Shown piece after piece: positions 1 to 12,678 of a stretch of DNA of 64,000 bases. The position numbers and the translations under genes are program-made. Numbering within the stretch: the stretch's first letter is position 1; every line of letters begins with the position of its first letter. The DNA comes from Terriglobia bacterium (GTDB lineage: Bacteria > Acidobacteriota > Terriglobia > 20CM-2-55-15). The notes below the pieces were generated by a model. The model worked only from the letters and a program-made list of their open reading frames with translations. It searched no databases and had not been told where the DNA came from. The stretch covers positions 416,001-480,000 of the forward strand of contig CBDAOY010000007.1 in assembly GCA_965198225.1 (NCBI GenBank). Reading direction: 5' to 3'.

Positions 1-2088
1 CTAGTCTCCTCCGCCCGACGACGACTTGCCGGCCTGACCTTCAAGGTACCTGCTCCACCACGCCAGCTCGTTGATCATCCTGTGAACGTTGTTCCAGTGA
101 CCACGGATTCCGTGAGCCTGACCGGCGTACCGGATCATCTTCGCAGGCACTCCCTGTCGCTTCAGCGCGAAATACATCTGCTCGCCTTCCGGATAGGGAA
201 CGCGCTGGTCCACCTCGCCGTGAACGAAGAGCGTCGGCGTTTTCACGTTGCCGGCGTGGGTCAGCGGCGATTGCTTGATCAACCGTTCCAGCGCCTCTTC
301 TTCCCACGGCGTCCCGAAGAATTCGGTCTCCTTCGTGCGGTAGATGTCGGCGGTACCGTAGTCGCTGACCCAGTTCGTGATGCCGGCGCCGGAAATGGCC
401 GCCGCGAAGTGGTCGGGGTACTGCGTGATCACCCAGTTGGTCATGAACCCGCCGTAAGAGTGGCCGGTGTGGCCGACGCGACCGGTGTCGATCGGGTATC
501 GTTCCAGGACGTAATCGACGCCGGACACGACATCCTGCCCGTCCTTGTTGCCCCATTCGCCCCACGTCGCCCACTTGAATGCCTCACCGTATCCGGTCGA
601 GCTCCTGAAATTCGTGTCCAGGACGAAGTAGCCGTTCGCCGCGAAAAACTGCTTCTTGAAGTTGAACCTGTAGCCCACGGCGGAGTGAGGACCCCCGTGA
701 CTGAAGACAATGAGGGGGTAGGGCCCCGTCGCACGGTCGTAGCCGGAAGGGAAGGTCAGCCAGCCCTCGATCGATGTCCCGTCGTAGCTCGGCCATTCCA
801 GCCGTTCCGTCCGGCTGAAGGCGACCTCCTCCAGGATGTTGTCGTGAACGGCGCTGAGCCGGCGTTCGTTCCCTCCGTCCAGGTCCGCAGCATAGATTTC
901 GGGAGGGGACTCATGAAGGCCGACGGTATAGACGATCGTGCGGAAATTCTCGTCGATTGACACCCCGCCGAGACGACGCTCGCCGCGGGTCACCTGCTCC
1001 ACGTCCCCGTCGGGAACTGACACTCGGAACACGTGGGTCTGCCCGCCGATTCCGGCCGTGAAGTACATAAACCGACCTTCCGGCGCCCATCGCGCAGGGC
1101 CCGGTTGGAGATCCCAGTTCGCGGTGAGGTTGATCGGGGCTCCGCCTTCGACGGGCCGAACGAACAGGTCGCGGGGGCCGCCATGATCGAGCTTGTCCCG
1201 GATGACCAGGTCCGTCCCGTAGCTGCGGGCGTATGAAATGAATCGACCGTCGGGGGAGAAGGCAACGCTGTTGTGAACGTAGAGGTCGTCGGTGAGCTGG
1301 GTGACCGTTCCCTCCGTCGACACCGTGTAGAGATCCGCCCGTCCGTAGCTGAGCTCGTTCCGCCAGTCCGAGTCCGCGGTAAAAGCCAGGAGGTCGCCCC
1401 TCGGATGCCAGCTCACGTTGGCGGGACGCAGGTCTTCGCTGAGCAGGACTCTTGCTTCACCGCCCTCAACAGGCTGGATGGCGATTTCGGTGGCCGCGCG
1501 AGCGGTTGGGTCTGGTGAAGGGAATTCCGCTCCATCCCGCTGGAAGTCCTTCCAGTCGAAGATGGCCCCTTCGAACCGCTCCTGGTGGCGGCGCTCGAAA
1601 TCAGTGGCATATGTCGGCTCCAATATCGGCCGCGGCTTGTCTCTGAGGGTTGCGAACCACTTTCCGTCCGGGCTCAGGACCGATCGTTCGTGCGGTCCGG
1701 CTGTTCTGGCGGGCAGAGCCGTGGGATCTGCCGGATCCAGAGTCCACCACCCGCCGTCGGCCGCGTACCGGAGCAGGTTGTCAGCGATCCATCGGGCTCC
1801 TGAAATGTCCTTTCCGTAGTGGACGACTCGTCGCGGCTGTGCCGACGCATCGGCGGGCACGATGCGTGTCTCGACCCGGGTGCTATTGTCCTCCTCGATT
1901 CTAGTGGACACCGTAAAAGCCACCCAATCACCGTCTGGTGAGATCTGAGGGTTCCCGACCGACTGGATTCGATAGAAGTCCTCGATGGCCAGCGGCCTGC
2001 TCTGGGCGGCTGCGAAGCCAACTGCGAGGGTCGAAACAAGAATCAGCGCGAGAAAAACGTGAAGCTGGAAAGACCTTGAGCGTGCCAT
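1..2088 (-). CDS. Exported S9-family peptidase (PD40/TolB-like propeller plus alpha/beta hydrolase)
   Basis: GHSYGG nucleophile motif, HGGP, HGEVDQRV, signal peptide; ATG at 2088 preceded by GGAGG. Confidence 0.9.
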   Translation of the reverse strand: MARSRSFQLHVFLALILVSTLAVGFAAAQSRPLAIEDFYRIQSVGNPQISPDGDWVAFTVSTRIEEDNSTRVETRIVPADASAQPRRVVHYGKDISGARWIADNLLRYAADGGWWTLDPADPTALPARTAGPHERSVLSPDGKWFATLRDKPRPILEPTYATDFERRHQERFEGAIFDWKDFQRDGAEFPSPDPTARAATEIAIQPVEGGEARVLLSEDLRPANVSWHPRGDLLAFTADSDWRNELSYGRADLYTVSTEGTVTQLTDDLYVHNSVAFSPDGRFISYARSYGTDLVIRDKLDHGGPRDLFVRPVEGGAPINLTANWDLQPGPARWAPEGRFMYFTAGIGGQTHVFRVSVPDGDVEQVTRGERRLGGVSIDENFRTIVYTVGLHESPPEIYAADLDGGNERRLSAVHDNILEEVAFSRTERLEWPSYDGTSIEGWLTFPSGYDRATGPYPLIVFSHGGPHSAVGYRFNFKKQFFAANGYFVLDTNFRSSTGYGEAFKWATWGEWGNKDGQDVVSGVDYVLERYPIDTGRVGHTGHSYGGFMTNWVITQYPDHFAAAISGAGITNWVSDYGTADIYRTKETEFFGTPWEEEALERLIKQSPLTHAGNVKTPTLFVHGEVDQRVPYPEGEQMYFALKRQGVPAKMIRYAGQAHGIRGHWNNVHRMINELAWWSRYLEGQAGKSSSGGGD

Positions 2089-2140
2089 CAGGACCTCCAC
2101 TTACGAAAAGTTTTGTCGAACCCTACTCATGATGCCCTGT

Positions 2141-3019
2141 TCACGGGCACGGATCTTCGCCTTCGACCGGGGCGACGCCGGAGGGCAGGAAGCGACACGG
2201 GTCGGCCGACTCGAGCGAGACGCGCGTTCCGGTTCGGATGAGGCTCGTGGCGCTCGGACCCTGGAAGAAGCTGTATCCCTCGCGGGTTCCCATCCATGCC
2301 AGCGGACCGCCCAGTTTACGGCCGGCCCCGAGGGTTTCGTCCTTGATCTTCGTCACGAGCGCCTCGTAGTCCGGGTCGCCCTGCCGTCGTCCGGTAAAAC
2401 TGCCGAGGTCGGAGCTTGCCGCGAAGACGACATCGACACCGGGGACGCCGGCGATCTCTTCGGCGATCTCCACACCGGCCGGCGATTCGATCATGGCAAC
2501 GATCATGATGTTGTCGTTCGCCGCCCTGCGGTAGTCGTTGCCCCAGATCGCACGGTATTGCCCACCGCCCTGGCTCCTTTTGCCGATGGGCGGGTATTTG
2601 GCGAAGGTGACTGCATTCTGCACTTTCTCGACGCTGTCGACCATCGGGATGATGATTCCGAGGGCTCCGATGTCGGTAGCCTTCTGGATGTCTCCTTCTG
2701 TTGCGTCGGGTACCCGGATGAATGGGATCGCCGGGGTGTCCTTGCAGGCCCAGATCATGCGTGCTGCATCGGTGTAGGTCAATGGGCTGTGTTGCATTTC
2801 GATCCAGAGGAAATCGAACCCGGCGCCAGCCATCGCGCAATAGATATCCGGGTCGGCCGTGGAGACCGTTCCCCCGACAACCTGTTTGCCCTCGGCCAGT
2901 TTCTGCTTCACCGTATTGAACATTCGCACCTGACCGGTCTGTTGCCCCTGAGCTTCGAACGCGGCGGTGGCGGTCAAGCCGACAGCCCACAGTAGCGCGA
3001 ACAATGTTACGTGCTTCAT
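2141..3019 (-). CDS. HpcH/HpaI aldolase family protein with signal peptide
   Basis: GFDFLWIEMQHSP, MIESPAGV and DVVFAASSDL motifs. Confidence 0.85.
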   Translation of the reverse strand: MKHVTLFALLWAVGLTATAAFEAQGQQTGQVRMFNTVKQKLAEGKQVVGGTVSTADPDIYCAMAGAGFDFLWIEMQHSPLTYTDAARMIWACKDTPAIPFIRVPDATEGDIQKATDIGALGIIIPMVDSVEKVQNAVTFAKYPPIGKRSQGGGQYRAIWGNDYRRAANDNIMIVAMIESPAGVEIAEEIAGVPGVDVVFAASSDLGSFTGRRQGDPDYEALVTKIKDETLGAGRKLGGPLAWMGTREGYSFFQGPSATSLIRTGTRVSLESADPCRFLPSGVAPVEGEDPCP

Positions 3020-3134
3020 CGGTACAACCTCTCTGTTGGAAGGATAATTGCGTCGAGAATCGTACCATTGTGGGGCGTTGGGCGGAAGGAACTGCGTGCG
3101 TCGATACGCTCTGCGAGCGCACAGACCGGGAGGC

Positions 3135-3167
3135 GTGTAGGTGCGGTCTCATAGAGCGCACCTACAC
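3135..3167. repeat. REP-like GTAG palindrome (fused, internally deleted copy)
   Basis: GTGTAGGTGCGGTCTCATAGAGCGCACCTACAC. Confidence 0.75.
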
Positions 3168-3241
3168 CCGATCCCAATCGCTTTGTGTCGGCCACTACAA
3201 TTGGGGTGCGGGAACAAACGATCTGGCGGGAGGTAGACTGA

Positions 3242-3577
3242 ATGTGGATCATGGTCGCGGGACCTTACAAATCGGGAGCCCGGAGTCGGGAAGAAGCAGA
3301 CGCCAATCTGAGGACGCTGAACGATGCCGCCTACGCGCTGTTTTTGAAAGGACACGTTCCGGTCATAGGCGTCAACATGGCCCTGCCGGTCATCGAGGCG
3401 GCCGGCATGGATCGCTACGAGGAGATCATGATGCCGATTTCGCTGTCGCTGGCCGAACGTTGTGACGCGATTCTGAGAGTCGGTGGCCACTCGCGCGGCG
3501 CTGATGAAGAAGTCGCCGTGTTGGCGGGGAAAGGTCGGCCGGTTTTCCGGCGAGTGGAAGAAGTCCCTCAGGCATGA
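3242..3577 (+). CDS. DUF4406-like / nucleoside deoxyribosyltransferase-fold small protein
   Basis: IMVAGPY start and CDAILRVGGHSRGADEE motif. Confidence 0.7.
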   Translation: MWIMVAGPYKSGARSREEADANLRTLNDAAYALFLKGHVPVIGVNMALPVIEAAGMDRYEEIMMPISLSLAERCDAILRVGGHSRGADEEVAVLAGKGRPVFRRVEEVPQA

Positions 3578-3616
3578 CAACTGACTACCGACTGAGCCCG
3601 GAACTGACTACTGACT

Positions 3617-4268
3617 ACTGACTACTTCCCCCCATCGCTTACTCTATTCTCATATGGCCGCGGATCACTTCAGTTCAGAGATCAAATCCGGAGCGCTCCT
3701 CATACTTCTTGCCCTGGCTCTTCCAACGGACCTGCCTGGTGCCAACACGCAGACCGTGGGGCCCGCAGCGTCGCCAGGGCCGGGGGTCCCGGAATGTCCG
3801 CGGCTTTCTCTTTTCATGGCTCAGGACGACTGGCTCGAACGGCTTGTCAATCCGATCTACACCACCACCGAAGAGGTGGATCAGGCGGTCCGGGAACGCG
3901 GGCGCATGCTGGAGTGTCTCGATTCGGTCGGACCGGGAGGTCCTAAATCTGTCGGACACTACTGACTACCGACAACTGACAACTGACTACTGACGAACTG
4001 ACTACTTCCCCCCATCGCTTACTCTATTCTCATATGGCCGCGGATCACTTCAGTTCAGAGATCAAATCCGGAGCGCTCCTCATACTTCTTGCCCTGGCTC
4101 TTCCAACGGACCTGCCTGGTGCCAACACGCAGACCGTGGGGCCCGCAGCGTCGCCAGGGCCGGGGGTCCCGGAATGTCCGCGGCTTTCTCTTTTCATGGC
4201 TCAGGACGACTGGCTCGAACGGCTTGTCAATCCGATCTACACCACCACCGAAGAGGTGGATCAGGCGG
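3617..4268 (+). repeat. 272-bp direct repeat (3617-3888 = 3997-4268)
   Basis: Identical sequence at a 380-bp offset; both copies begin in ACTGACT heptamer tracts. Confidence 0.95.
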
Positions 4269-5394
4269 CCGGGCGTTTTTGTCCGATCAGCTACGCATGG
4301 TGCGCTACCATCTGGCCCTGTTCCTGTCGTTCGCCGACGCCGGAACGGGTTCTCCAGAGCTTGTCGATCTCTCCACGACCCCGGACCCGGCGGTGCGACG
4401 ACTGAGGGAAGACCTTGGCCTGCTTCCGCCCTCGGGTGTCATTCTGATTCGATACTTCATCGATCCCGAGCAAGTGCCCGACCCCATTCGCGACGCTTTC
4501 GAAAACCCACAGACTCAGGCGGTCACGCTGTGGTGCCGCTACGTTGCCGTTTTGACGTCCACCCGGAGAGACCTCAGCCAAACCCCGACCGCAACCGATG
4601 GCCTGCAATCGACCTTCTCCCACGAACTCGTGCATGCGTTCCTCAACGCCAGACTCGGCTCCGGGATCATCGAGAGCGGATTCCCATCGTGGTTTCACGA
4701 GGGCATGGCCATTCATTTCAGTGGCAGCGGGCGTGGACACGTGACGCTGGACCCCTCCACGGGTGGCTTCACACGAACCGAGCCGACCGCGCAATACGAG
4801 CGATACCAGAGGACCTTTCTCTACCTGGAATCGAGCCTGGGCCATTCCGGTTTCAATCAGGCTTTGCATCTCGCAGTTGAAAACGCCGATCCCTCGTTGT
4901 TGATAGCCGCCGCTGACGAATCTTCATACGACGAGCTTGTCGCGACGGCCGAGCTGTGGTGGCGGTGGTGGCCCCTTCCAGTCGCGCTGGTTCGAGGGTG
5001 GGCACTCTGGTGGCTGGCGGGGTTGATCGTGATGTCGATCGGAGCGGGATGGTCGTTGTGGAGGCGATGGCAGCCCGCTGTTCCCCGATCGGCCCTCGAA
5101 GTCGAACTGAACTCGGATCTGCTGGCTGCGATCCAGAGCGGGGATGCGGGAACCGTTCGATACCTTATCCGCTCCGGAGCGCATGCCAACGCGCAGGATG
5201 GTGACGGGAGGTCTGCCCTCATGTGGGCGGTTTGGATGGACCAGTTTCAGGCGGTGGAGGCTCTGGTCAATGCCGGGGCGAAGGCCACGCGTGAGATCCG
5301 GGGCGTCGCGGAGTTGCGGGGCTGTTCTCCGGACATCGTCCGTGTGCTTGCCGATGGGGTCGCCAGGGACGGGGAGGAGTGGAGCGATGATTGA
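4034..5394 (+). pseudogene. Signal-peptide gluzincin-like metallopeptidase (peptidase MA-like) with TM segment and C-terminal ankyrin repeats, frameshifted near 4268
   Basis: HELVH...PSWFHEGMA zinc motif, GAHANAQDGDGRSALMWA ankyrin; the N-terminus is in another frame and duplicated upstream. Confidence 0.7.
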
Positions 5395-5471
5395 CCCCGC
5401 CGGTCCCTTCCAGTTACATTTGCGCGCAAGATGACGTTCCATCAAGGTCGCGGCAAGATCGAGTGCCCACG

Positions 5472-6785
5472 ATGACCACCACCGAACCCACCGTCACGAC
5501 CCGGGCATCTGCAGGCGACCCGTCTCTGATCTCGACCGGCAGCTGGGTTATCTACGACCTTGCCAATACGATTTTCTCTTTCAACATCGTGTCGTTCTAT
5601 TTCGTGCTGTGGGTGACGAACGTTATGGGGGGAACGGATGCCGACTACGGCTACGCAAACTCCATCTCGATGGCCGTTGTTTTCTTCCTGTCCCCTGTGC
5701 TGGGCGCCCTGACCGATCAGGCTCCGAAACGAATGCCTTTCCTCGTCATCTCCACCGTGATCTGCGTGGCCCTGACGTTTCTACTCGGTTCCGGTGGATT
5801 GACGTTTTCGCTCGTGTTTTTCGCCTGCGCCAACGTCGCCTACCTGGCCGGCCTCCAGTTCTACGACGCTCTGTTGCCCGAGGTCAGCACCGAGGCGACT
5901 CGGGGCCGGGTCAGCGGTGTGGGCGTCGGCGTGGGCTACCTGGGTTCGTTCATCGGGCTCGCAGTCGGAGCGATGATTCTGGGCCTGGAAATCGACTCTC
6001 TGCCGGTGGCGGAGCAGGCGGTTCGCTACCGCACGGTTTTCCTTCTGACGGGATTCCTGTTTCTGACGTTTGCGATCCCCTGCTTTTTGTTCGTACAGGA
6101 GCGAGGACGTCCGGGGCGCCGGTTCTCCAGCTCTTCGGTGGGCGCGGCATTCCACCAGGTTGCGACGACGTTCCGACACTCCCGGCGGTATCCCGGCCTG
6201 CTGCGCTTCCTTATCGGCCGGATGTTCTACACCGACGCCGTCAACACCGTCATCATCTTCATGGGCGTGTACGTCGTCAACGAGGTAGGTTTCGGGACAG
6301 TGATGGCTCAGGTGGTGCTCCTGGTTGCTATCCTCTTCGCCGTCGTCGGTGGTCTCGTTTGGGGACGAATCGTCGATCGAATCGGCCCGAAACGCTCGCT
6401 GACGATCGTGCTGCGACTGTGGATGGTCGTGTTCAGCTGGACCGCCCTGGTCGGGTTCCTGCCCGTGCCGAGCTGGACGTTCTGGCCCGTGCCGGTCCTG
6501 GCGGGTATCGCGCTGGGCGGGACCTGGACGGCCGATCGTCCCTATATGCTGCGTCTGACGCCACCCGCGCGAGTCGGCGAGTTTTACGGCCTCTACGGGA
6601 TGGTCGGCCGTTTTGCGGCGATTCTCGGACCCGCTCTCTGGGGCCTGATCGTCAACACACTGGGTTTGGGGCGACCGGTCGCGGTGACGACATTGTTGGT
6701 CGCCATCCTGATCAGCTACTTCATCCTCCGTCCCGTTTCCGACGAACGTAGAGACTGGCCCGCGGAAGAACGAATCCCGGCCTGA
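5472..6785 (+). CDS. MFS transporter (UMF1/ATG22-like)
   Basis: SWVIYDLANT, YDALLPEVS, GEFYGLY; about 12 hydrophobic segments. Confidence 0.85.
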   Translation: MTTTEPTVTTRASAGDPSLISTGSWVIYDLANTIFSFNIVSFYFVLWVTNVMGGTDADYGYANSISMAVVFFLSPVLGALTDQAPKRMPFLVISTVICVALTFLLGSGGLTFSLVFFACANVAYLAGLQFYDALLPEVSTEATRGRVSGVGVGVGYLGSFIGLAVGAMILGLEIDSLPVAEQAVRYRTVFLLTGFLFLTFAIPCFLFVQERGRPGRRFSSSSVGAAFHQVATTFRHSRRYPGLLRFLIGRMFYTDAVNTVIIFMGVYVVNEVGFGTVMAQVVLLVAILFAVVGGLVWGRIVDRIGPKRSLTIVLRLWMVVFSWTALVGFLPVPSWTFWPVPVLAGIALGGTWTADRPYMLRLTPPARVGEFYGLYGMVGRFAAILGPALWGLIVNTLGLGRPVAVTTLLVAILISYFILRPVSDERRDWPAEERIPA

Positions 6786-6854
6786 GTTTCCGTCCTTTTG
6801 CCCGAATTTCATGGGACGGTCCGGGGCGAGCCTGCTATCGTCGAATCGATGTTG

Positions 6855-7177
6855 TATCGAGTCAGGCTGCCCGAGCCTTCTATTACCTCGGCTCCGCGCT
6901 ATACAAGCTCGACCATTTGGAATACGCCGAAACGAGCCTCGAGTGGTCGCTCGGCCATGACGAAGTGATCCCGGACGCGCGACTGATGCTGGTCAACATC
7001 TACATGAAGCAGCGCCGGTACCGCGAAGCCGCCGATCAACTGACAGTCTACCTGGTAGAGTTTCCGGACAGTCCTCAACGGAAGGGTGTCGAAAAGATGC
7101 TGGACGACATCCGCAAGGTCCTGCAGCAGTCGCCCGGACAATCGCAGTCCTGTGTCTTCTGCAGTCGGGAAGAATAA
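6855..7177 (+). pseudogene. C-terminal TPR-protein fragment
   Basis: AFYYLGSALYKL...ARLMLVNIYMKQRRYREA TPR pattern; no convincing start. Confidence 0.55.
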
Positions 7178-7191
7178 TCCGTCGGAAGGGC

Positions 7192-7685
7192 AAAAAAAAT
7201 GGAAAGGGGCCAACTGTCCGCTTGCTCTCGCCACTAGTTGCTCGAGCACGGGACTGATTCTCCGGCGAGCCCTCGATCGCAGGGCTGATCATGATTCGAT
7301 CGTGAGTTGCCCCACTTTCTCTTCGCGGTCCGATCAACTCCCTTCAGGCTTTGCGAGTTGCCCCGCGCCGCCGTCCGGAGGCTGATTCAAGCTCCGTTCG
7401 GTCCACGAGTTGCCCCGCTTCCCTCCCTTTGCTTGACCTTCAAACTCTGACTGAGACGCGAGTTGCCCCGCTCCTCGTCCAGGGTTTGAGTCAGACTCTG
7501 CTCGGTCTGCGAGTTGCCCCGCATTCCGCTCAGGGTCTGATTCAGACTCTTCTCGATTTGCGAGTTGCCCCGCTCCTCGTTCAGGATCTGAGTCGGTCTC
7601 TGGTCGGCCTGCGAGTTGCCCCGCATTCCGTTCAGAAACCGTGCCGGGTCGTCAATCTCTAACGATCAGCTAACCCCTTACCGAG
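7192..7685 (-). ncRNA. Candidate structured ncRNA, copy 1, with 7 tandem ~51-nt GNRA-hairpin modules
   Basis: GCGGG-GCAA-CTCGC hairpins (plus-strand starts 7302, 7353, 7405, 7458, 7509, 7560, 7611); 5'/3' closing helix 7667-7679 with 7204-7216; U8 tract at 7192-7199; paralog at 11.1-11.4 kb. Confidence 0.7.
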
Positions 7686-7735
7686 CAGTAGAATCTACCT
7701 TTCTCGGAATCCTGTCAATATAGAAAATTTTGCGC
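7685..7735 (-). promoter_or_regulatory. Sigma70-like promoter for ncRNA copy 1 with overlapping GTAGA-N-TCTAC palindrome
   Basis: TTGACA (7713-7718), N15, TAGATT (7692-7697), AT-rich upstream tract; conserved in copy 2. Spacing is shorter than the canonical 17. Confidence 0.55.
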
Positions 7736-7934
7736 GCCATTGCTCATGTATAGTACTGAATACAAGTAGTTTAACGTGTATGCGAATATCTTGCGTCGAT
7801 CACAGAACGGCGCGGTGGGAAATGTTGCAATTTTCGCTATTTGAGGTGCGCGAAGTGCGCCCTGCGCTCGGTTATGGTCAGACCTCCTCGCCTAACGCCT
7901 CACCTGTCTTTTGGGCTGCCTGTTCGGGGTTCCA

Positions 7935-8050
7935 CGAACTATGCAGGCGTCCCAAAGGGTCGCGATGGCGGGACACAAGACCCGGTCCGTTTTGACGGGT
8001 ACAACATCGTCAACGAGGACGACATTCCGGAGGCCGGACAAGCCGTCGCA
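7935..8050 (+). pseudogene. Tyrosine recombinase (phage integrase) C-terminal remnant
   Basis: Frameshifted AGVP-RVAMAGHKTRSV-FDGYNIVNEDDI, resembling the integrase GH...Y box II. Confidence 0.75.
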
Positions 8051-8142
8051 GCCTCCTTCACCGATCCATGGGCACAGTTCCCGCACAGATCGCAGAAATC
8101 CATGAGGAAAGGAAAATAGCCGAGATGCAAAGTATTTGAGAC

Positions 8143-8198
8143 TGGATGCCGAAAGGGGGTTTCGAACCCCAAGTCCCTGGCGGACAATAGATCCTGAA
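8143..8198 (-). pseudogene. Degenerate 3' fragment of tRNA-Leu(CAG), att-site-like
   Basis: Minus strand reads TTCAGGATCT...GGGGTTCGAAACCCCCTTTCGGCATCCA; no D-arm or 5' half. Confidence 0.6.
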
Positions 8199-8355
8199 GG
8201 CGTCCTGTGAAAGGGTTGGTTTGTTGATGAAAGCTTAGTCTTTCAACTCATCCACGGATTCTTAGCCAATGGAAAACGTGAAAAGTTGTGTCAAGTTAAT
8301 TGTGGAGCGGGCAAGAAGCCGGCGGCCCGCGAAGTAACCACCGGCCTCGTTAACC

Positions 8356-10851
8356 TTAGGGTCGGGCCGGGCAGTCATCGGTTGGGAAATACTGCAGGCA
8401 TTCCTGGGCTGTTAAGTCGCGAAATATGCGCGCGCGCGCGCGTTCGAGCAAACTCTCGATTTCGCGTGCCCATATCTTGGCCGTCCCATCCTGGCTCGCG
8501 GTGGCGACTCGCGTCCCGTCCCCGCTGAACGCCACCCCATACACATCGCCGCCGTGGCCGCTCAGGGTCCGCAACTCCTGCCCCGTTGCCGCATCCCATA
8601 TCTTGGCCGTCCCATCGACGCTCGCGGTGGCGACTCGCGTTCCGCCCCCGCTGAACGCCACGCCATACACATCGGTGCCGTGGCCGCTCAGGGTAAGCAA
8701 CTCTTTCCCGGTTGCCGCATCCCATATCTTGGCCGTCCCATCGGCGCTCGCGGTGCTCACCCGCGTCCCGTCCCCGTTGAACGCAACCCCAATCAAAATG
8801 GTGTCGTGGCCGCTCAGGGTAAGCAAGTCCTCCCCGGTTGCTGTATCCCATATCTTGGCAGTCCCATCCTCGCTCGTGGTGGCCACTCGTGTCCCATTCC
8901 CGCTAAACGCCACCGCATACAGATAGGGCTCGTGGCCGCTCAGGGTAAGCAAGTCCTCCCCGGTTGTCGCATCCCATATCTTGGCCGTCCCATCCTGGCT
9001 CGCGGTGGCGACTCGCGTCCCGTCCCCGCTGAACGCCACGCCATACACACCGGCGTCGTGGCCTCTCAGGGTAAGCAACTCTTCCCCGGTTGTCGCATCC
9101 CATATCTTGGCCGTCCCATCCTGGCTCGCGGTGGCGACTCGCGTCCCGTCCCCGCTGAACGCCACGCCATACACACCGGCGTCGTGGCCTCTCAGGGTCC
9201 GCGACTCCTCCCCGGTCGTCGCATCCCATATCTTGGCCGTCCCATCGGCGCCCGCCGTGCCCACCCGCGCCCCGTCCCCGCTGAACGCCACGCCATACAC
9301 ACCGGCGTCGTGGCCGCTCAGGGTCCGCAATTCCTCCCCGGTTGCCGCATCCCAAATCTTGACCGTGCCATCGGCGCTCGTCGTGCCCACCCGCGTCCCG
9401 TCCCCGTTGAACGCCACGCCATACACATCGCCGCCGTGCCCGCTCAGGGTAAGCAACTCCTGCCCGGTTGCCGCATCCCATGTCTTAGCCGTCCCATCGA
9501 CGCTCCCGGTGGTCAGTCGCGTCCCGTCCCCGCTGAACGCCACCCCATACAAAGAGTCTTCGTGGCCGCTCAGGGTCCGCAACTCTTCCCCGGTTGCCGC
9601 ATCCCATATCTTGGCCGTCCGATCGACGCTCGCGGTGGCGACTCGCGTCCCGTCCCCGCTGAACGCCACCCCATACAGATAGTCTTCGTGGCCGCTCAGG
9701 GTAAGCAACTCCTGCCCGGTTGCCGCATCCCAAATCTTGGCCGTCCCATCGACACTCGCGGTGGCGACTCGCGTTCCGCCCCCGCTGAACGCCACGCCAT
9801 ACACATCGGCGTCGTGGCCGCTCAGGGTCCGCAACTCCTGCCCGGTTGCCGCATCCCAAATCTTGGCCGTCCCATCGGCGCTCGCGGTGGCGACTCGCGT
9901 CCCGTCCCCGCTGAACGCCACCCCATACACATCGGCGTCGTGGCCGCTCAGGGTCCGTTCGACAAAAGATGTCGCGACGGCCCGGTAGAGCACGCCTTCT
10001 GCGACCGGAAGTGTATCCCCGCCGAAATTGTGAGTGGCCTGTACCGCATGCACTCCCAAAATGACGCTAAGTTCCGGATCTTGGGACAGGCTGCCTTCCG
10101 CGTAGGCGGCTAGTTCCCGCGCCCGGCCTTCTCGTCCGTTTTCTTCAGCGATGAAGGTCTGTTGAACGGCGTAGGACACGGCAAGAACGGCGAGAACGAG
10201 TGCCGCCATCGCCACTGATAAATAGGCCTTGAGTCGCGAGCGCATCCTCCTCTCTTTTTGCAAATCTTGTTCTAAGTCTTGCCTGGAGGTAACATTCTCG
10301 CTCTCGCGGATTCCACCGATGATGCGCTCGCGAATGTTAGTCCGGATGTCGTCGCGCTCCTGCGAAGACAGGAGTTCCCACTTCCCGGGCTGAACAGGCA
10401 GGCGCTGCGCGTTTGGCCAGCGTGCTTGCACAACGTCGGGTGTCCATCGGGCGCCCTCTCCCGTTGAATCGATAAGAATTGGTGCGACGTGACGGTTGGC
10501 CAACCACCAGTCCAGTTCCTTGTGGACCCAATCGTCCACGCCTCGATTCGGGAAAGCGCCCGGCGAGCACACAAGAAGCATCGCCCGCGCCCGCTGTAGC
10601 GCCGGCTCGTGAACGCGAGTCCAGTCGTCGACAGCGGGAGCCGATTGATCGTAGTAGAGCTCAAGCTCGGGCGGCGCGTCGTATCCATCGGGGATAAAGG
10701 GGAGGGGTTGCCTGTGAAGAGTCTCGTAAAGCCACTCTGCGGCTCCACCTCCGTCGACTTGGCGATAGCAGATGAAGATGTCCCAGGTTGCAGGGGGGCG
10801 TGCGGGTTCACTCCCTTCAGCGCTGGGGTTATTAGTGTGGTCTGCCGACAT
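8356..10851 (-). CDS. TIR domain + TM helix + 12 near-identical WD40 repeats
   Basis: DIFICYR...WVHKEL TIR motifs; hydrophobic VAMAALVLAVLAVSYAV; 42-aa TLSGH...AKIWD repeats. Confidence 0.9.
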   Translation of the reverse strand: MSADHTNNPSAEGSEPARPPATWDIFICYRQVDGGGAAEWLYETLHRQPLPFIPDGYDAPPELELYYDQSAPAVDDWTRVHEPALQRARAMLLVCSPGAFPNRGVDDWVHKELDWWLANRHVAPILIDSTGEGARWTPDVVQARWPNAQRLPVQPGKWELLSSQERDDIRTNIRERIIGGIRESENVTSRQDLEQDLQKERRMRSRLKAYLSVAMAALVLAVLAVSYAVQQTFIAEENGREGRARELAAYAEGSLSQDPELSVILGVHAVQATHNFGGDTLPVAEGVLYRAVATSFVERTLSGHDADVYGVAFSGDGTRVATASADGTAKIWDAATGQELRTLSGHDADVYGVAFSGGGTRVATASVDGTAKIWDAATGQELLTLSGHEDYLYGVAFSGDGTRVATASVDRTAKIWDAATGEELRTLSGHEDSLYGVAFSGDGTRLTTGSVDGTAKTWDAATGQELLTLSGHGGDVYGVAFNGDGTRVGTTSADGTVKIWDAATGEELRTLSGHDAGVYGVAFSGDGARVGTAGADGTAKIWDATTGEESRTLRGHDAGVYGVAFSGDGTRVATASQDGTAKIWDATTGEELLTLRGHDAGVYGVAFSGDGTRVATASQDGTAKIWDATTGEDLLTLSGHEPYLYAVAFSGNGTRVATTSEDGTAKIWDTATGEDLLTLSGHDTILIGVAFNGDGTRVSTASADGTAKIWDAATGKELLTLSGHGTDVYGVAFSGGGTRVATASVDGTAKIWDAATGQELRTLSGHGGDVYGVAFSGDGTRVATASQDGTAKIWAREIESLLERARARIFRDLTAQECLQYFPTDDCPARP
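8470..9958 (-). repeat. 126-bp tandem coding repeats (WD40)
   Basis: Twelve highly similar 126-bp units. Confidence 0.95.
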
Positions 10852-10917
10852 CGATAAGTGTCAGCTTGGGAAACGAACCCCTAACTGTCAATCAATTACT
10901 AGGAGTCAAATCGAGTG

Positions 10918-10979
10918 TGGTTGCTCTAGAGGGACTTCGAATCTCCACAGGATCGCTCCCGACTAGATCCTTAATCTGG
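10918..10979 (-). pseudogene. Degenerate tRNA-Leu-like 3' fragment
   Basis: Minus strand reads CCAGATTAAGGATCTAG, long variable arm, GGAGATTCGAAGTCC...ACCA; 5' half missing. Confidence 0.5.
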
Positions 10980-11077
10980 TTGTTCCATCAAGGTGGAAGC
11001 GCGTTCCGTGGCGGCTGGCCAAGGTTGAAGGCGGGTGAGGGAAGAACGGCCAAGCCTGAGTACCGGGAGCTGAGGGC

Positions 11078-11373
11078 AAAAAAAAAGGAGGGGTCAGCCG
11101 TCGCCGCTCTCGCCACTAGTATGCGTGAGCCCGGAATCGACTCTCCGGCCAGGCCCCCGATCGTCAGAGCCTGTGTCAGACCCTCATCGGTTTTGCGAGT
11201 TGCCCCGCATCCCCTCTTCGGGCCTGCTTCAAACTCCGTCCGGCTTGCGAGTCGCCCCATAAGCCGTCCAGGGCTTGAATCGGCTCCTGATCGCTCTGCG
11301 AGTTACCCCGCAAATCCGTTCAGAAGCCATGCCGGGTCATCAATCTGGTTGCGATCAGCTAACCCCAACCGCG
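11078..11373 (-). ncRNA. Candidate structured ncRNA, copy 2, with 3 GNRA-hairpin modules
   Basis: Hairpins at 11195, 11247, 11298 with loops GCAA, GCGA, GUAA; closing helix 11356-11366 with 11090-11100; U9 tract at 11078-11086. Confidence 0.7.
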
Positions 11374-11423
11374 CAGTAGAATCTACCTTTCTCGGTAGGG
11401 TGTCAATACAGAAAAATTTGCGC
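11373..11423 (-). promoter_or_regulatory. Sigma70-like promoter for ncRNA copy 2
   Basis: TTGACA (11401-11406), N15, TAGATT (11380-11385); 23-nt block identical to copy 1. Confidence 0.55.
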
Positions 11424-11633
11424 TGTTAATATTGATAAAAGTACTGATACTAAATGTGTTAACAGGTGCATGCATTCGCTGCGTCCGGGCTCGTGTCCAC
11501 GACCGTAACAAATTGCAATTTGCCGTTCGAATGCTTCCAAACCGCGTTTTCGGAGGGCCCGAACGCGGGTGTTTCCTGAGATAATGATGGCCAGATGGCG
11601 CAGTTGTTCGGAAACGCTGCGGAGGAGGTCCCT

Positions 11634-12678
11634 GTGCGTATAGGCATTCCAACCGAGATAAAACCGAAAGAAGGTCGAGTTGCGTTGATTCCACCCGCTG
11701 CGGCCGAGCTTGTGCAAGACGGGCATGAAGTGTTGTTGCAGTCGGACGCCGGGGTTGGGACCGGCTACTCTGATCAGGACTACATCGATGTGGGGGTGCG
11801 CATCGTAGCGGACGCGCAGGAAGTTTACGGTGAGGCCCAGATGGTCCTGAAGGTGAAAGAGCCGATCGAGCCGGAGTTCGAACTCCTGAGAGAAGATCAC
11901 CTGTTGTTCTGCTTCCTCCACCTGGCTGCTCTTCCCGAATTGACGCGCGTCCTTCAGAACAAGGGTTTGACGGCGGTGGCCTGGGAGACCGTCGAGGAGC
12001 GGGGGAGACTGCCGATCCTGGCGCCCATGAGTGAGATTGCCGGCCGTCTCGCTGCTTCATCGCCACCACGGAGGACGCGGGCTGATGCTGGGAGGCCTTC
12101 CCTCGTCGGATCGCGGTCACGTGGTGGTGCTGGGAGCGGGCAGCGTCGGCATCAACTCCGCCGAAGTCGCGGCCGCTCTGGGAGCTCGAGTGACGGTGCT
12201 TGCGCGAAGCCGGGAAAGCCACGCCCGCGCAAACGCTCTGGGCCCGAACGTCACCGGCTTGCCTGCTTATAGAGACATGGTTGCGGAGGCTGTCGCGGAT
12301 GCAGACCTGCTGGTGGGTGCGGTGCTGATCCCGGGAGCCCGGGCGCCGAAATCAGTGGATGCCGCGATGGTGCGCAGCATGAAGCCCGGCAGCGTGATCG
12401 TCGACGTGTCCGTCGACCAGGGCGGTTGTGTGGAAACCATTCGCCCGACCACGTATGAAGACCCGACCTACGTCGTCGATGAAGTGGTTCATTTTGGAGT
12501 CACCAACATGCCGGGAGCCGTTCCGCGCACCAGTTCCCAAGCGCTCTCGAGCGCGCTCGTTCCCTACACGTTACGGCTGGCTGGGGAGGGAGGCCTGTCC
12601 GATCCAGCACTGCGTGCAGGGATCAACGTTCAAGCCGGAACAATCGTCCATCCGGCAGTCGCCGAAGCCATGGTTTGA
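11634..12678 (+). pseudogene. ald: Alanine dehydrogenase, frameshifted near 12045-12055
   Basis: RIGIPTEIKPKEGRVAL N-terminus and GAVLIPGARAPK / DQGGCVET / NMPGAVPRTS C-terminus are in different frames. Confidence 0.9.

Follow-up and report, generated by a model that had tools for sequence, protein, structure and literature searches.

Two RNA genes with amplified hairpin units in a Terriglobia bacterium, members of a new structured and probably self-associating RNA family

What kind of RNA is encoded by the two similar non-coding genes on the minus strand of a 64-kb stretch of the Terriglobia bacterium contig CBDAOY010000007.1 (positions 416,001 to 480,000; this whole stretch of 64,000 nucleotides (nt) is called the window below)? 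An earlier reading of the letters alone (the original prediction) had proposed two stable RNAs, each closed into a rod by pairing between its 5' and 3' ends, with an array of repeats at the apex and a loose likeness to 6S RNA. Here we consider it virtually certain that the two genes, named W1 and W2, encode a closed structured RNA of a new family. We further read them, with reasonable though incomplete confidence, as expanded paralogues of a structured small RNA that closes upon itself and probably associates with itself. The predicted genes and their signals are the following, in window coordinates:

7192..7682, minus strand: W1 RNA, predicted ~491 nt, from a putative start at ~7682 to the end of the U-run.
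11078..11370, minus strand: W2 RNA, predicted ~293 nt, with a core as in W1 and three units.
7690..7735, minus strand: W1 promoter, with an upstream element, TTGACA (7718-7713), a 17-nt spacer and GATTCT (7695-7690).
11378..11423, minus strand: W2 promoter, with TTGACA (11406-11401), a 17-nt spacer and GATTCT (11383-11378).
7192..7199, minus strand: W1 U-run, 8 U directly after the closing helix P1, which is the putative terminator stem.
11078..11086, minus strand: W2 U-run, directly after the 3' strand of P1.

The two genes have in common the promoter region, a 5' segment starting GGGGUUAGCUGAUCG and a 3' segment with ACUAGUGGCGAGAGC that is followed by 8-9 U; the 15-mer that is invariant between them occurs exactly twice in the 64 kb, against 0.09 expected occurrences. 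Folded as minus-strand transcripts, W1 reaches -224 kcal/mol (z -6.7 against dinucleotide shuffles) and W2 -152.6 kcal/mol (z -7.4), whereas the plus-strand folds are weak (z -3.2 and only -1.15, respectively), which bears out the earlier claim that the G-U pairs fix the orientation to the minus strand. The fold is organized around three outer helices:

7667..7682, minus strand: W1 P1, 5' strand of the closing helix.
7201..7216, minus strand: W1 P1, 3' strand of the closing helix, with the U-run directly after.
11356..11370, minus strand: W2 P1, 5' strand of the closing helix.
11087..11100, minus strand: W2 P1, 3' strand of the closing helix, then the U-run at 11086-11078.
7643..7657, minus strand: W1 P2, 5' strands of the inner helix, GAUUGA (7657-7652) and CCGGC (7647-7643).
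7252..7266, minus strand: W1 P2, 3' strands of the inner helix, GCCGG (7266-7262) and UCAGUC (7257-7252).
7223..7248, minus strand: W1 P3 hairpin, with the loop palindrome ACUAGU (7238-7233); its 3' strand is the remainder of the invariant 15-mer.
11106..11130, minus strand: W2 P3 hairpin, with the loop AUACUAGUG and ACUAGU at 11120-11115.

Both long-range helices of the original prediction are recovered. The closing helix of W1 pairs 7679-7667 with 7216-7204 at 13 of 13 positions, three of them G-U, with pairing probabilities of 0.66-1.0 (0.97-1.0 for 11 of the 13), and past a U-U mismatch it extends into two G-C pairs (7682-7681 with 7202-7201) that reach the predicted first nucleotide; that of W2 pairs 11366-11356 with 11100-11090 at all 11 positions, two of them G-U, with probability 1.0. 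The inner helix joins GAUUGA to 7257-7252 and CCGGC to 7266-7262 in W1 (probabilities 0.6-1.0), and 11345-11339 to 11141-11135 and 11335-11331 to 11149-11145 in W2 (0.4-1.0). Differences between the copies in these helices preserve pairing, as had been claimed, and a short extension (7665-7661 with 7222-7218) shows one two-sided change between W1 and W2 (U-A or U-G versus C-G). The overall shape has to be redrawn. Closure by long-range 5'/3' helices stands, but the RNA is not a rod with an apical array: the stem leads to a three-way junction and then to a multiloop, for which 3 hairpins (W2) to ~10 (W1) are predicted. Similarly, what had been described as an asymmetric loop holding the 15-mer is actually the loop and 3' strand of the P3 hairpin, which stands on the three-way junction.

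Between the conserved ends lie repeats with a period of 51-53 nt, each with GGGGCAACUC or a near variant; W1 has seven of them and W2 three. They comprise the following hairpins:

7334..7641, minus strand: W1 array, six hairpin units of 48-52 nt with the cap GCGGG-GCAA-CUCGC.
7641-7594, 7591-7542, 7540-7491, 7489-7440, 7436-7387 and 7385-7334, minus strand: bounds of the six W1 units.
7302..7315, minus strand: seventh, truncated GNRA hairpin of W1, GUGGG-GCAA-CUCAC.
11328-11282, 11279-11228 and 11226-11177, minus strand: the three W2 units.

Each unit is a long irregular hairpin of 48-52 nt with purine-rich internal loops and the apex GCGGG-GNRA-CYCGC. We aligned 15 units from W1, W2 and L309, a metagenomic orthologue of W1 described below; the proposed unit structure pairs 84% of the cells in this alignment, as against 28-45% with slid partners, and nine pairs carry two-sided changes, where 3 of 500 shuffles give as many. 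The GGG/CYC apical stem is invariant across these units, and their loops vary but remain GNRA (GCAA, GUAA, GCGA, GUGA and GAAA). W1 and W2 are lineage-specific expansions, in which one GNRA-capped hairpin has been amplified to six full units and a stump in the former and to three units in the latter.

The unamplified form of this RNA was found with covariance models. A model of the hairpin unit (R1) matched single hairpins in all three same-genus genomes, inside RNAs of ~205 nt whose promoter is of the same kind and in which P1, P2 and P3 recur, together with a single unit, a short hairpin and a U-run. A second model (R2), built from these single-unit RNAs, retrieved 22 full-length copies from 12 of the 34 genomes of the bacterial family, which is probably acidobacterial, at 1-3 copies per genome and with the window's own genome (G000) included; by genus, the positive genomes number 3/3, 2/2, 4/5 and 2/5. 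In a sample of 150 genomes of the class, R2 matches fell in 10 of the 19 genomes from the bacterial family, with a single weak match among the 130 from other families. The third family copy of G000 is a single-unit RNA on the plus strand (G000:C6:895849-896060; locus L328:1501-1712) scoring 105.4 bits. The matches of R2 to the window are partial: 33.4 bits at W1 7188-7376 (E 7e-10) and 29.3 bits at W2 11074-11265 (E 1e-8), in both of which the array interrupts the model, and 40.7 bits at W1 unit 1 (7570-7643), with E values across the three from 1e-8 to 5e-12. Because R2 aligns their 3' halves and unit 1, W1 and W2 are members of the ~205-nt RNA family with an amplified unit; both show the family set of P1, P2, a palindromic-loop hairpin here called helix 9, the palindromic-loop P3 hairpin and the U-run.

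A search of metagenomes with the 3'-core pattern returned one locus, the contig L309, which is an orthologue of W1 with an equal number of units and shares with the W1 locus a neighbouring transporter gene (79% amino-acid identity). The two are 96.3% identical over the promoter and 5' core, 94.6% over the 3' core and 77.7% over the array, compared with 75.7% for the DNA of the neighbouring gene and 11.8% just downstream of the RNA, and the conserved block corresponds to window 7197-7708. Placed on the 164 pairs of the W1 fold, L309 leaves 128 pairs unchanged, alters 21 on one side and two on both sides with pairing preserved, and breaks 13. The 6-7-unit form in this orthologue is maintained by selection. 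A coding reading was rejected, as the plus-strand frame 7351-7662 has only 59% protein identity to its L309 counterpart, against the 77.7% of the array DNA, and has no Pfam match.

Searches by plain sequence returned little. BLAST of W2 against 40 related genomes gave no match, because the homologues are too diverged in sequence and are found by covariance models only. In species genomes the specific 3'-core and 5'-core patterns gave no loci; the exact 15-mer gave at least 118, and among the matches listed none had other features of the RNA. A scan of species genomes for the GGGGCAACTC motif pair returned for the most part 18-nt coding repeats unrelated to the RNA, along with CRISPR-like and other repeats. 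For the window, Rfam yielded no match, 6S included, either at the gathering score or with the E limit relaxed to 10; it likewise gave none for 12 array loci and none for the RNA genes of six single-unit loci, where it called only a tRNA gene elsewhere in L333. Literature searches aimed at this RNA found no publication. No conserved neighbour genes of the RNA family were seen, and the three same-genus genomes share dehydrogenase genes with the window but have no RNA gene at the corresponding place.

The family provides a comparative view of the fold. In an alignment of the 22 members to the R2 model (A4), 92.7% of the cells are paired, as against 26-50% with slid partners, and two-sided changes are seen at 47 of the 66 pairs, more than in any of 500 shuffles; P1 contributes 14 pairs, of which 11 are compensatory, with 96.6% of the P1 cells paired. 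These figures come with the caveat that the alignment was fitted to the model structure and thus favours it. The variable P1 and P2 positions that were checked by eye in W1, W2, L309 and the same-genus RNAs all preserve pairing, A-U to G-C exchanges included. The outer helices P1, P2 and P3 are recovered in separate folds of W1, W2 and L309, and since these independent folds agree and the 22 family members covary, we regard the outer helices as beyond chance.

The W1 stretch is also present in RNA sequencing runs labelled as sponge, coral, crustacean and marine metagenome. Contigs from four such runs of four studies, mapped on the W1 region 6900-8300, cover 7209-7674 only, with nothing in 6900-7208 or 7675-8300, and in one run, which comprises 238 million letters, the summed word depth rises to ~8,400. 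The contigs of three runs end exactly at 7209, with no loose end there, and one that matches up to 7674 continues into unrelated sequence; the shared stop and the uncovered parts of the stretch are at most weak hints about the transcript ends. Two further observations were made on these contigs. Those of other samples carry 7-nt insertions at 7282-7291, and one contig (run X17) goes back by 103 bases, the length of two units (window 7473-7575); the latter may come from a strain whose array is two units longer, or from an assembly that looped within the repeats. Taken together, the insertions and the X17 step hint that strains differ in their last hairpins and in how many units they carry, unless the assembly looped.

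The ends that had been forecast, near 7685/7195 for W1 and 11373/11080 for W2, agree with the promoter spacing and the U-runs, with the block shared with L309 and with the span of the RNA contigs. The promoter layout with its conserved upstream element is common to W1, W2 and L309, and the related element GCAAATCTTTCGCGTTGAC, which is fused to the -35 box and ends in TTGAC(A), lies upstream of 20 of the 22 family members; W1 and W2 carry the variant GCGCAAA(A/T)TTTTCT(A/G)TATTGACA (window 7713-7735 and 11401-11423). The conservation of this element suggests that one regulator or special sigma factor may serve all members of the RNA family. A simple scan for sigma-70 promoters with terminators called neither gene, and a terminator scan found no local hairpin terminators in 6800-11800. 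The U-run stands directly 3' of P1 in W1, in W2 and in most of the 22 relatives. Given the lack of a local terminator hairpin and the position of the U-run directly after P1, this helix probably doubles as the stem of an intrinsic terminator.

Both short hairpins of the core display palindromes in their loops; P3 is listed above, and the second is:

7268..7286, minus strand: W1 hairpin equivalent to helix 9, with the loop palindrome CGAUCG (7279-7274).
11150..11173, minus strand: W2 hairpin equivalent to helix 9, with the loop GACGAUCG.

The 9-nt loop of helix 9 has a 6-nt palindrome in all 22 relatives (CGAUCG in 8, AGAUCU in 13 and CGGCCG in 1), where shuffling expects 1.5, and the P3 loop has one in 19 of the 22 (CCAUGG in 18 and CCGCGG in 1), where shuffling expects 3.5. 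The single CCGCGG belongs to the single-unit copy of the window's own genome. In W1 and W2 the helix-9 loop has CGAUCG, and the P3 loop has ACUAGU, a third palindrome for P3 that is also present in L309. In L333, L334 and L342, family members from other genera, the unit hairpin ends not in GNRA but in a longer apex with the palindrome CCUAGG, which may represent a third self-complementary loop. Adjacent bases of one loop cannot pair together within one chain. Palindromes that change only to other palindromes therefore speak for pairing between two copies of the same loop. For OLE and GOLLD, the same palindrome-switch argument is used by the authors of their structures for symmetric kissing loops, in the accessible part of that paper (PMC12286853). 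We consider it an evenly balanced question whether copies of the present RNA would self-associate through the palindromic loops of helix 9 and P3.

The explanation that we favour combines these elements. The usual member of the family is a ~205-nt RNA with its own conserved promoter, in which P1 (14-16 bp) joins the very start of the RNA to the nucleotides just ahead of the U-run, clamping the ends and most likely also serving as the terminator stem. P1 leads to the three-way junction, with the P3 hairpin as one arm and P2 as the other, and P2 closes a multiloop with one long GNRA-capped unit and the short helix-9 hairpin. In the lineage of the window genome, this unit was tandemly amplified to the numbers seen in W1 and W2. 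The helix-9 and P3 palindromes would most likely make symmetric loop-loop (kissing) contacts between RNA copies, and docking points would be added to these by the additional GNRA hairpins in W1 and W2, giving a multivalent self-assembling scaffold or sequestering body. A bolder version, which we hold only tentatively, has assemblies of RNA alone forming through two independent symmetric kissing loops, with the GNRA module multiplied in a marine host-associated lineage to raise valency and with networks, rings or condensate-like bodies as the outcome; jointly with it, and equally doubtful, the shift of the P3 palindrome from CCGCGG in the single-unit copy to ACUAGU in W1 and W2 would set the expanded copies apart as an assembly class of their own.

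Several points weigh against this explanation. Neither the strand nor the exact ends nor the level of the RNA can be read from the contigs, whose limits at 7674 and 7209 lie 7-8 nt within the two P1 strands; they reach just 8 bp into each strand of the closing helix and exclude neither, an exclusion that would have refuted the original prediction. The terminator-stem idea loses strength through the degraded U-run of L309 (UUUCCAUUUCUGG). The P3 loop is imperfect in three of the 22 relatives (CCACGG, CCAGGG and CCAUUGG), and the helix-9 loop of L309, UGAUCG, is self-complementary through G-U only. The palindrome counts are of sequences with shared ancestry and imply ~4-5 separate switches. Further, the pattern would be equally expected from a symmetric site for a dimeric protein, and the kissing-loop reading draws on the pattern in the sequence alone.

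Between W2 and W1 lies a gene on the minus strand (window 8356-10851) for an 831-aa protein with an N-terminal TIR domain and ~12 WD40 repeats, encoded by 126-nt DNA repeats in 11.8 copies; an ankyrin-repeat protein gene is found nearby at 4174-5394. PADLOC called no clear system in this region. The block ~2923-11634 is not shared with the three same-genus genomes in the compared stretches, one of which holds a separate 783-nt match to 2141-2923.

Other functions can be envisaged for these RNAs. They could be sponges or decoys of the CsrB/RsmZ kind, in which the GNRA hairpins titrate an RNA-binding protein, more units mean more capacity and the palindromic loops are dimer sites. Such a role would account for the invariance of the GGG/CYC apical stem over the 15 units, the difference in unit number between paralogues (3 versus 6-7), the existence of several paralogues with one conserved promoter element and the apparent abundance of the RNA in RNA libraries; it would also fit a second type of RNA with an unrelated core, considered below, that has 5-13 similar units within its own closing helix. 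It is nevertheless unlikely: no partner is known and no conserved neighbour gene was seen, the loop letters are free within GNRA (GCAA, GUGA, GAAA, GGAA, GCGA and GUAA), so that the loop bases are not read specifically, and the single unit usual in the family is not a sponge design. CsrA in particular is disfavoured as the partner, as W1 has 14 GGA triplets and W2 has 7, none of them in a hairpin loop. Two CsrA genes are present in the window genome, one of them adjoining FliW, and CsrA genes are also present in same-genus genomes, but none was found in the three array-bearing genomes of genus g19. We give little credence to an ordinary base-pairing small RNA, in which the loops would be seeds for messenger RNAs and the array would be processed from a precursor to several small RNAs. 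It would be suited by the stand-alone position of the genes, whose genomic contexts are unrelated, by the conserved single-stranded loops and by an uneven contig depth over W1 in one run (~470 versus 2,000-8,000); processing is, however, not measurable from contig depth, and seeds that switch only among palindromes are unexpected for messenger RNA targets.

As for the 6S-like regulator of RNA polymerase that had been proposed earlier, a rod with a central bubble mimicking an open promoter, the stable minus-strand RNA, its conserved core, the long-range closure and the variable internal array all hold, but the likeness to 6S itself does not. Only the paired 5'/3' ends and the apparent abundance speak for it; the predicted fold is branched and lacks a central bubble, Rfam gives no match up to an E value of 10, and a canonical 6S gene is encoded elsewhere in the genome (G000:C6:230181-230371; 64.4 bits, cut-off 46.4), leaving this role with next to no prospect. 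A partnership with the TIR-WD40 gene, in the type III antitoxin-like order of promoter, repeats, terminator and effector, has the arrangement of the locus in its favour, as W2 ends ~230 nt upstream of that gene on the same strand, W1 lies ~670 nt downstream, and the block is, but for the one 783-nt match, absent from the compared stretches of the same-genus genomes. Type III antitoxin repeats are, however, 34-36 nt long and are processed by an RNase toxin, whereas the units here are stable hairpins of 48-52 nt within a closed RNA; neither an RNase toxin gene nor a PADLOC system accompanies the TIR-WD40 gene, and among 20 proteins encoded next to the RNA in 10 of the 22 relatives, not one is a TIR or WD40 protein. 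We thus view this partnership as very improbable, and an antitoxin of the ToxI kind was rejected, the gene downstream encoding a TIR-WD40 protein instead of an endoribonuclease toxin. CRISPR and REP (repetitive extragenic palindromic) readings were also rejected. The same applies to a VIPR guide-RNA array, a type that consists of alternating GGY/NN repeats of 5 nt according to the accessible part of its description (bioRxiv 10.64898/2026.04.26.720920): the longest GGY run at a 5-nt period is 2 on either strand, the Vipr protein not having been searched for.

The reading of W1 and W2 as expanded, self-closing and probably self-associating paralogues can be set beside known RNAs. OLE, GOLLD and ROOL measure ~600-800 nt or more, as against the ~205 nt of the usual member here. 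They are likewise highly structured bacterial RNAs of unknown role, and the accessible part of their structural description reports symmetric palindromes that covary into other palindromes, as well as contacts of the GNRA/A-minor type (PMC12286853). By the same partial account, these RNAs are in Rfam and have been seen as oligomers by cryo-electron microscopy, whereas the present RNA has no Rfam match and its self-association is something we infer only; a tandemly amplified hairpin module such as that of W1 and W2 is not described for them in that part of the paper (PMC12286853). CsrB and RsmX/Y/Z are comparable in having several paralogues with one promoter type, repeated hairpins in variable number and high abundance, but they present GGA loops to CsrA, whereas here the loops are GNRA with no GGA and a single unit is usual. 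6S RNA (RF00013) is similarly an abundant stable RNA with paired 5'/3' ends; it differs in its central bubble, which W1 and W2 lack along with any match to its model, and the genome has a 6S of its own. The dimerisation initiation site of human immunodeficiency virus 1 has a 9-nt loop in which a 6-nt palindrome is preceded by two bases and followed by one purine. The loop AA-CGAUCG-A of helix 9 in the family and the P3 loop AU-ACUAGU-G of W2 follow this design, a likeness confined to the loop, as the viral element is part of a genomic RNA of unrelated sequence.

A second undescribed RNA, of 540-970 nt, was observed in Terracidiphilus-type and other Acidobacteriaceae genomes (L124:1185-1860 on the plus strand, L035, L289-L307 and L284-L287). 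It has a conserved 5' hairpin domain, 5-13 GNRA-capped units, a separate terminator hairpin and a 17-pair long-range closing helix around the array that is conserved in 14 sequences; it has no Rfam match, and its neighbouring genes are not conserved. The kind of unit, with purine-rich internal loops and an NNGGG-GNRA-CYCNN apex, and its placement in a closed scaffold are the same as in W1 and W2, but the 5' and 3' domains are different, the terminator is local, no palindromic loops were noticed and R2 matches none of the 19 genomes of the family f9 to which its carriers belong. As this RNA carries similar units within a helix of its own, a closed scaffold with a hairpin array arose or was kept at least twice in the class. 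Outside the Acidobacteria, non-coding hairpin repeats of the GGGGCAACUC type were seen in L049 (a Phycisphaerales contig end with perfect 48-nt repeats) and in L295 and L305 (unclassified bacteria). In actinobacteria, a 14-mer hairpin, GCGGGGCAACTCGC, forms 21-22-nt intergenic tandem repeats whose arrays in places face each other (L288, L290, L296 and L301 from Pseudonocardia thermophila, L297 from Marmoricola, L293 from Amycolatopsis, and L300 and L308 from Saccharomonospora); these may represent a REP-like element, or the search pattern may have met them by coincidence.

The present analysis adds a well-supported structured RNA family that is missing from Rfam 15, from a poorly studied phylum and with its window copy in RNA libraries of marine animal hosts. 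It brings a signature of intermolecular contacts of the OLE/GOLLD type into an RNA small enough for native gels, size-exclusion chromatography and cryo-electron microscopy. Moreover, it captures a rare event, in which one structural module of an RNA was amplified in tandem while the scaffold around it stayed fixed, and thereby offers a series of natural forms, with 1, 3 and 6-7 units, for studying hairpin valency.

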